A stretch of 64,000 nt of DNA, from assembly GCF_013167455.1 (NCBI RefSeq), contig NZ_CP038328.1, one strand, 5' to 3'. Shown in pieces: positions 17,101 to 20,100 of this stretch. The stretch is from Escherichia coli O157:H7 (GTDB taxonomy: Bacteria > Pseudomonadota > Gammaproteobacteria > Enterobacterales > Enterobacteriaceae). A program made the position numbers. Positions within the stretch are counted from its first letter, which is position 1, and each line of letters begins with the position of its first letter.

Positions 17101-20100
17101 TCCTGCATCAGCGCGTCACGGCAAGGCAGCTGTGCAGCAACCGCCGCAGAAAGCGCTGCCAGCGCATCGGTCATATTGTTTGCTTCATGGTATTGCTTGC
17201 TCACCAGCACGTCAGCCAGATGCGTTTCACCAAAAGCAAGGAAGCGCAGGCAGGCATTACGCAGAGTGCGTTTTGCAATATCTTCATGCTCAACACGGTA
17301 CTCGCTCTGGTAATTCGCGTTGTAAATAGCCAGTAGCTCATCCGCCAGTTCAGTCGCCAGAGTACGAGTGAGTGCTTCGCGTACTTCGGCAATAGCAATC
17401 GGGTCGATGATATCGAACAGTTCAGCCATTTCATTGACAGAAGGCAGCGTCAGGATTTCTGCCGCCAGCGCCGGATCAATCTTCTCATCGAGCAGCACCG
17501 CGCGGAAAGCGTCAGCCACATGTACCGGCAGAGACAGCGGCTGCCCTTGCTGATGACGGGCGACGTTCAGCTTGATGTAGGTTGCCAGCAAACTTTGCGC
17601 CGCATCCCAACGGGAAAAATCATTACGCGCATGACGCATCAGGAAGGTCAGTTGCTGATCGCTCCACTTATATTCCAGTTTCACTGGCGCAGAGAATTCG
17701 CACAGCAGCGCAGGCACCGGCTGGAAGTAGACATTATCAAAAACAAAGGTCTGTTCCGCCTGGGTGACGTTCAGCACGGAATTCACCGGATGACCGCCTT
17801 TCTGCAACGGGATCACTTTGCCTTCGTTGTCATACAATTCGATGGCAAACGGAATATGCAGCGGCTGTTTTTCTGCTTGATCCGGCGTGGCTGGCGTGCG
17901 CTGGCTGATGGTCAGGGTGTACTGCTCGGTTTCCGGATTGTAGTCGTCTTTGACGGTCACAACCGGCGTACCGGACTGGCTGTACCAACGGCGGAAATGG
18001 GAGAGATCGACATTCGACGCATCTTCCATCGCCTGAACGAAATCGTCGCAGGTCGCTGCACTGCCATCATGGCGCTCGAAATAGAGCTGCATCCCTTTCT
18101 GGAAGTTTTCTTCGCCAAGCAGAGTGTGGATCATACGAATCACTTCCGCGCCCTTCTCGTAAACGGTCAGGGTGTAGAAATTGTTCATCTCAATGACCAT
18201 GTCCGGGCGGATTGGGTGCGCCATCGGGCTGGCGTCTTCCGCAAACTGCAATCCGCGCATGGTGCGCACATTATTGATACGGTTTACCGCGCGGGAACCA
18301 AGGTCAGAGCTGAATTCCTGATCGCGGAAGACGGTTAAACCTTCTTTCAGGCTGAGCTGGAACCAGTCGCGGCAGGTCACTCGGTTACCGGTCCAGTTAT
18401 GGAAATATTCATGGCCGATAACGCGTTCAATATCGAGGTAATCTTTGTCGGTGGCGGTATCGGTGCGGGCCAGCACATATTTGGAGTTAAAGATATTCAG
18501 ACCCTTATTCTCCATTGCGCCCATATTGAAGAAATCCACCGCGACGATCATATAGATGTCGAGGTCATACTCCAGGCCAAAGCGTTCTTCATCCCATTTC
18601 ATGGAGTTTTTCAGCGAGGTCATCGCCCACGGCGCGCGATCAAGGTTGCCGCGATCGACGTACAGCTCCAGTGCTACTTCGCGACCAGAACGCGTGGTAA
18701 AGGTATCGCGCAGTACATCAAAGTCGCCTGCCACCAGCGCAAACAGGTAGCACGGTTTCGGGAACGGGTCCTGCCACTGTACCCAATGGCGTCCGTTTTC
18801 CAGTTCGCCTTGCGCAACGCGGTTACCGTTGGAAAGCAGGAAGGGATATTTGGTTTTATCGGCAATAATTTTGGTGGTAAAACGCGCCAGCACGTCCGGG
18901 CGGTCGAGATAATACGTAATATGGCGGAAACCTTCGGCTTCACACTGGGTGCAAAGCGCATCGCCTGACTGATAAAGCCCTTCCAGCGCCGTATTCGCCG
19001 CCGGGCTTATTTCATTAATGATCTTAAGCGTAAAACGCTCCGGCAAATTACTGATGACCAGTGCGCCCTCTTCTTCTTTCCAGGCGGTCCACGGCTCATC
19101 ATTAATATGAACAGAAACCAGTTTGAGGTCTTCGCCGTTGAGACAAAGCGGAGCATCTGATGCACCATGACGGACAGCCTGGCTGACCGCGGTAACGACC
19201 GTCTTTTGCGCGTCGAGGTCAAAGGTCAAGTCAATATCAGTAATCTGGTAATCCGGCGCACGATAATCGTGACGGTATTTGGCTTGTGGCTGTTGAGTCA
19301 TAAATAACCTTTAGCATCTTTTATAGAGTCTGGTGTTCAGTCTATTCCTGTTGCGTAAATCGCGCTATGCAGAATCTTCATCTTTTCAGGTACAAACGCC
19401 TTTATTGCTACATTTTTATAACATACACCGCGTAATGCCATCGACCAGAAAGGTGGCATATGGTGTGATCGGGGTTCAATAAATTGCGAAACAAGGTATA
19501 CTCCAGCAGTTCCTGAAGATGTTTATTGTACTAAACGCTCCTGTACGAGGACGCTACTGCGCACCTATGACACAATTCGCTTCTCCTGTTCTGCACTCGT
19601 TGCTGGATACAGATGCTTATAAGTTGCATATGCAGCAAGCCGTGTTTCATCATTATTACGATGTGCATGTCGCGGCGGAGTTTCGTTGCCGAGGTGACGA
19701 TCTGCTGGGTATTTATGCCGATGCTATTCGTGAACAGGTTCAGGCGATGCAGCACCTGCGCCTGCAGGATGATGAATATCAGTGGCTTTCTGCCCTGCCT
19801 TTCTTTAAGGCCGACTATCTTAACTGGTTACGCGAGTTCCGCTTTAACCCGGAACAAGTCACCGTGTCCAACGATAATGGCAAGCTGGATATTCGTTTAA
19901 GCGGCCCGTGGCGTGAAGTCATCCTCTGGGAGGTTCCTTTGCTGGCGGTTATCAGTGAAATGGTACATCGCTATCGCTCACCGCAGGCCGACGTTGCGCA
20001 AGCCCTCGACACGCTGGAAAGCAAATTAGTCGACTTCTCGGCGTTAACCGCTGGTCTTGATATGTCGCGCTTCCATCTGATGGATTTTGGCACCCGTCGC

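Follow-up and report, generated by a model that had tools for sequence, protein, structure and literature searches.

The DNA analysed here, referred to below as the window, is a stretch of 64,000 nucleotides from Escherichia coli O157:H7 (contig NZ_CP038328.1). It contains the divergent genes pepN and pncB, separated by a spacer of 265 bp. The pncB gene (19567-20769, plus strand) encodes nicotinate phosphoribosyltransferase (400 aa), as indicated by Pfam matches to NAPRTase (1e-93) and NAPRTase_N (2e-38) and by identity with K-12 b0931. On the other side of the spacer, pepN (16689-19301, minus strand; K-12 b0932) encodes aminopeptidase N, with Peptidase_M1 and DUF3458 matches. The spacer and 40 bp of either flank match K-12 MG1655 without any difference, and the annotation of that strain names the neighbouring genes pncB (b0931) and pepN (b0932). 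Of 5426 complete E. coli genomes, 5425 contain the 265-bp spacer at an identity of at least 95%. Translation of pncB is taken to start at the ATG at 19567-19569. An in-frame ATG at 19519-19521, which would add 16 codons to the protein (416 aa vs 400 aa) and which overlaps the left edge of the palindrome described below, was considered as start codon and rejected, because a 1-nt indel before the downstream ATG breaks the frame in many genera and because the K-12 annotation uses the downstream ATG.

Within the spacer, positions 19520-19537 carry the 18-mer TGTTTATTGTACTAAACG, with the layout TGTTTA-TTGTAC-TAAACG. The five inner positions of the two halves (GTTTA/TAAAC) make a perfect inverted repeat, which the outermost pair (T...G) breaks; the two half-sites are separated by exactly 6 bp (TTGTAC). 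An earlier note on this DNA had described a TGTTTA-N6-TAAACG palindrome about 30 bp before the pncB ATG, shared with the divergent pepN side only at a distance, and had related it to NadR repression of pncB. The coordinates of this palindrome proved exact, the measured gap to the pncB ATG is 29 nt, and the pepN start lies 218 bp from the box; control of pepN from this site is not expected. The 18-bp operator consensus of NadR is TGTTTA-N6-TAAACA (PMC2330246, PMC2330245). The pncB box agrees with it at 11 of the 12 specified bases, the sole mismatch being the final G, where the consensus has A. On the basis of its sequence, the palindrome is a candidate NadR operator, or NAD box.

The available literature provides the regulatory context of this candidate. 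NadR binds DNA via its N-terminal HTH domain, with NAD as co-repressor and ATP as antagonist (PMC2330246, PMC12421817); the role of NAD as co-repressor is also stated elsewhere (PMC2330245). In Salmonella and E. coli, NadR represses nadB, nadA, pnuC and pncB, and ATP and NAD compete for the protein (PMC12421817). Repression of pncB by NadR is stated in three sources (PMC12421817, PMC2330246, PMC5343134). A 2025 study using EMSA tested the nadB and nadA-pnuC promoters, and not that of pncB. Direct binding of NadR to this exact E. coli DNA is thus suggested by reviews and regulon descriptions. In agreement with a DNA-binding role, NadR of E. coli K-12 (b4390; the nadR gene lies outside the window) shows an HTH_3 domain (residues 7-59), then a cytidylyltransferase-like domain and AAA_28; NadR proteins with this N-terminal HTH are confined to Enterobacteria. 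The known targets nadA and nadB in the same species carry consensus boxes, as the comparison with nadA and nadB proposed in the earlier note has borne out. The NAD box of K-12 nadA (locus L002, 1496-1513) is TGTTTAGCATATAAAACA, with 1 mismatch to the consensus, and nadB has two boxes, TGTTTAGTAAATTAAACA, which is perfect, and TGTTTAGCAACTGTAACA, which has 2 mismatches.

The position of the box with respect to the promoter could be defined from published transcription start sites (TSS). For pncB, Kim et al. (2012) give a single TSS in their genome-wide table, supported by 180 reads and leaving a UTR of 58 nt (PMC3415461). The 51-mer given for this entry in supplementary file 2 maps to 19459-19509 of the window, which places +1 at G19509, on the plus strand. 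Six nucleotides upstream of this TSS lies a conserved -10 hexamer, TATACT (19497-19502, plus strand), and the sequence GGTATACTCC that contains it is kept in essentially all of the 80 pncB loci compared below. The -35 element is weak (TTCAAT/GTTCAA near 19474-19480). Because a generic scan of 19250-19650 for sigma-70 promoters and terminators gave nothing at threshold, the -10 assignment rests on the TSS and on conservation. With the TSS at 19509, the box occupies +12 to +29; it lies 17 bp downstream of the -10 hexamer.

In order to follow the box across the family, a PncB scan was run with one genome per species, which gave a sample of 80 loci from Enterobacteriaceae having 82-98% protein identity. 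In 54 of these 80 species, from more than 15 genera, the box was found upstream of the pncB ATG at a distance of 28-29 nt, and its half-sites are invariant. The identical 18-mer is found in 46 of the 54 loci, the other 8 differing in the spacer of the box only. Among the 30 distinct box-containing upstream sequences, the half-sites are 100% identical and the box spacer is 96% conserved, vs just 60% for the linker that joins the -10 hexamer to the box (19503-19519). The length of this linker, 17 bp in E. coli, ranges from 7 to 20 bp, and four Enterobacter species have a 10-bp deletion in it. Genera with the box include Escherichia, Salmonella, Citrobacter, Enterobacter, Lelliottia, Leclercia, Kluyvera, Kosakonia, Phytobacter, Pluralibacter and Pseudocitrobacter. 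In Salmonella enterica subsp. arizonae (L021), the identical 18-mer occurs at the same distance from the ATG. More generally, the box sits within a well-conserved spacer, and strong conservation across genera extends to the pepN-proximal half of it as well (about 19338-19470). An Rfam scan of the spacer gave as sole match a sub-threshold PepN thermometer (RF02779, 19272-19399, minus strand; 21 bits vs a gathering score of 83, E = 0.16), which was discarded as noise.

The remaining 26 loci are box-less. They read ...TTTTGATGGAAACG at the position of the box, and the left half-site is therefore absent. This group comprises Klebsiella oxytoca, K. michiganensis and K. indica, together with Raoultella, Trabulsiella, Atlantibacter, Franconibacter, Siccibacter, Mangrovibacter, Superficieibacter and Pseudescherichia. 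Such a patchy distribution agrees with the description of the NadR regulon as having nadA-pnuC as its conserved core, pncB being an optional member controlled only "in several enterobacterial genomes" (PMC5343134). Two further arrangements were observed. In Klebsiella, Raoultella and Trabulsiella, 62 bp are inserted between a -35 region of the E. coli type and the -10, and a box with 2 mismatches, TGTTCAATATATTAAACT, is located about 136-139 nt before the pncB ATG (loci L035, L039, L050, L054, L055, L057, L058, L062 and L065); this sequence may be a relocated or decayed operator. In Enterobacter sp. Ag1, a perfect box, TGTTTAGTACTCTAAACA, is found 179 nt before the pncB ATG (L077, 1304-1321). 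The upstream neighbour of pncB in that genome is a co-directional ORF of 406 aa, and not pepN.

Two other conserved elements flank or overlap the box. Downstream, a block of the 5'UTR (19533-19566, AAACGCTCCTGTACGAGGACGCTACTGCGCACCT) is conserved in 80/80 pncB loci, the box-less ones included; the pattern of its last 35 nt or so can be written AAACGCTCC..GT..GAGGA.GC...GCRCC. No Shine-Dalgarno motif at canonical spacing was found in this block, the GAGGA being 15 nt before the ATG, and an alignment of 26 diverse UTRs gave no covariation-supported structure for it. The fixed non-consensus G of the right half-site is probably due to the overlap with this block. Moreover, since the right half of the box overlaps a block that is conserved in box-less species as well, part of the conservation of the box may have another cause. 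Upstream, a half-site-like sequence lies between -35 and -10 (19488-19493), directly before the -10 hexamer. It reads GAAACA in Escherichia and TAAACA(A) in most other genera that have the box. At the orthologous position (in L007-L080), TAAACA is found in 50 of 55 box-containing promoters vs 0 of 26 box-less ones. This co-occurrence suggests a possible auxiliary NadR half-site, which may be functionally linked to NadR; it may also reflect shared ancestry rather than function.

The conservation of the box can be read in other ways than as that of a NadR operator. One of them is that it stems mainly from a promoter on the minus strand, either divergent and directed towards pepN or antisense, whose -10 hexamer would be TACAAT (19525-19530), NadR control being secondary or absent. 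A minus-strand pepN TSS, with a 216-nt UTR, does map to 19517, TACAAT being 7 nt upstream of it (PMC3415461), and the box spacer TTGTAC is, at 96%, more conserved than the differing nadA and nadB spacers would predict. However, this TSS is represented by 5 reads vs 180 for that of pncB, no good -35 accompanies it, and the invariant half-sites TGTTTA and TAAACG, which follow the NadR consensus, are left unexplained. The stronger pepN TSSs of Kim et al. (2012) lie at a distance from the box, at 19408 (12 reads) and 19301 (7 reads). In addition, such a promoter is compatible with a NadR operator at the same place. As TACAAT is the reverse complement of the box spacer, NadR could also occlude this minor divergent or antisense promoter. 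The minus-strand promoter might contribute to the conservation of the box spacer, and it is very improbable that it accounts for most of the conservation of the box.

The strength of the motif itself bears on a second reading, in which the box is a chance AT-rich palindrome devoid of regulatory role and any control of pncB by NadR is exerted elsewhere. Throughout the 64 kb of the window, the pncB box is the only sequence that matches TGTTTA-N6-TAAACA with at most 1 mismatch. Nevertheless, 0.22 such matches are expected per window, and 20% of shuffled sequences contain at least one. The earlier note had suggested scanning with a position weight matrix (PWM). A symmetrised NadR PWM was therefore built from the K-12 nadA and nadB sites, which are only 3 in number (2-3 being used with spacer columns). 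Because the PWM that includes spacer columns overfits the spacers of nadA and nadB, a PWM restricted to the half-sites was run as well. With matrices resting on 3 sites, the pncB box scores 13-15 bits, vs 21-28 bits when the training sites themselves are scored, so that it reaches roughly half of the nadA and nadB values. Of some 64,000 positions in the window, it ranks first with the half-sites only and second or third when spacer columns are included. The corresponding probability per position, 4-8e-6, leads to about 0.3-0.5 matches per window and about 20-40 per genome by chance, the overall estimate for such matches being about 0.2-0.4 per window and 20-30 per genome. Consequently, the scan did recover the site with a modest match, and it does not single it out genome-wide unless position and phylogeny are considered. 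Another sequence of the window, ATGTTAAGAATGCTAAAGAA (6978-6997), obtains with this small PWM a score close to that of the pncB box and is ranked above it when spacer columns are included. Its half-sites contain 2 mismatches, and it overlaps the beginning of an ORF of 169 aa (6491-7000, minus strand); this NadR-like match is probably due to chance.

Taken alone, the motif match at pncB is weak evidence and does not go beyond chance. The significance of the box comes from its position before one of the few documented NadR targets and from its conservation, and both disfavour a chance palindrome. Indeed, a PWM match inside the 265-bp spacer would be expected by chance about 0.001-0.002 times. 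The box occupies a fixed place in the promoter of this target, and no other candidate box was found in the spacer, where the second-best sequence has 4 mismatches. Furthermore, its half-sites do not vary in 54 species, while the adjoining 17-bp linker does. A fortuitous palindrome is accordingly a very unlikely explanation.

Finally, the inverted repeat might act as an RNA hairpin of the pncB 5'UTR (+12 to +29), affecting stability or translation, rather than as a DNA operator; the box is indeed transcribed from the TSS at 19509 and in both the MFE and the centroid folds of the UTR its two halves pair as a 6-bp stem, but this short, AU-rich stem gives a fold no stabler than those of shuffled sequences (z = +0.73; 152/200 fold at least as well), is absent from the RNAalifold consensus of 26 diverse UTRs, shows no compensatory changes and never varies in its bases, though a selected hairpin would tolerate such changes, so that with neither a significant single-sequence fold nor a covarying alignment fold this very improbable reading was rejected.

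Altogether, it is very probable that the palindrome at 19520-19537 serves NadR as its operator in the E. coli pncB promoter. The evidence gathered here consists of the sequence, its position with respect to the mapped TSS, the nadA and nadB boxes, the HTH domain of NadR and the conservation across genera. The consensus, the repression of pncB by NadR and the effector logic of NAD and ATP are taken from the literature. The repression of pncB proposed in the earlier note is upheld by these data, the sequence being one base off the consensus and the gene being named as a NadR target.

A mechanism can be proposed on this basis. NadR is a trifunctional protein, with an N-terminal HTH and with NMN adenylyltransferase and ribosylnicotinamide kinase domains. 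At high NAD, a dimer of NadR, for which NAD serves as co-repressor, would occupy the half-sites TGTTTA and TAAACG. In the open complex, RNA polymerase protects DNA to about +20. At +12 to +29, the box overlaps both the region transcribed first and the edge of this footprint on its downstream side, so that in this NAD-salvage promoter a repressor bound to it would stand in the way of the polymerase. Bound NadR would then, we infer, hinder the binding or isomerisation of polymerase, or block open-complex formation, promoter escape or early elongation. Blocked transcription of pncB would result in less nicotinate phosphoribosyltransferase. Conversely, when NAD falls, ATP in the nucleotide site would cause NadR to leave the DNA and pncB would be derepressed. 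A more elaborate scheme can also be imagined, in which pncB is controlled through three half-sites, NadR oligomers cooperatively bracketing the -10 and the TSS. The box would then have been gained or lost as a unit over an older conserved 5'UTR element, the overlap fixing the non-consensus G. This scheme is speculative and seems rather unlikely.

Among the papers covered by a full-text search, none quotes the exact 17-mer, and a literature search for NadR ChIP-exo returned nothing useful. The pncB NadR site of Salmonella and E. coli is presumably the one treated by Vinitsky et al. 1991, Penfound and Foster 1999, and Gerasimova and Gelfand 2005, as well as in RegulonDB/RegPrecise. In 1991, Vinitsky et al. 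reportedly noted in the Salmonella pncB promoter a TAAACAA inverted repeat shared with nadA. Such a repeat is consistent with the Salmonella locus L021, where TAAACAA precedes the -10 and the box contains TTGTTTA. The box is most probably the site already described for Salmonella and E. coli, from which it is not known to differ. The pncB NAD box is already known and corresponds to ordinary textbook regulation.

Through this site, nicotinate salvage in E. coli is tied to the level of NAD, and the site has belonged to the described NadR regulon for decades. What is added here is the placement of the operator at +12 to +29 of the mapped TSS, together with its evolutionary fate. The operator is kept in the Escherichia, Salmonella, Citrobacter, Enterobacter, Kluyvera and Kosakonia groups, and is replaced or relocated in Klebsiella, Raoultella, Atlantibacter and Cronobacter-related genera. 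These data may be of use in studies of regulon evolution and in the engineering of strains overproducing NAD or NMN; they have little import beyond annotation.

Other bacterial regulators follow the same logic as NadR. NiaR, NrtR and NadQ also repress NAD genes by sensing metabolites, pncB being among their targets in some lineages (PMC2330245, PMC2330246, PMC5343134). They differ from NadR by their protein families, their motifs and their effectors (niacin, ADP-ribose), and they are absent in this role from Enterobacteriaceae. The closest relatives of the pncB box are the nadA-pnuC and nadB operators of E. coli and Salmonella, which share with it the TGTTTA-N6-TAAACA architecture, a promoter-proximal location and the same HTH-bearing NadR. 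However, the pncB box ends with G rather than A, and its spacer is TTGTAC, vs GCATAT and GTAAAT in the nadA and nadB boxes. The positions also differ. The nadA box lies at about -54 to -37 of the sole nadA TSS of Kim et al. (2012), which has 5 reads and a UTR of 36 nt, and 6 nt separate the main nadB box from the nadB ATG downstream, whereas the pncB box covers +12 to +29. Given the mapping of the nadA TSS, it appears that the position of the NadR operator relative to the TSS differs at nadA, nadB and pncB.
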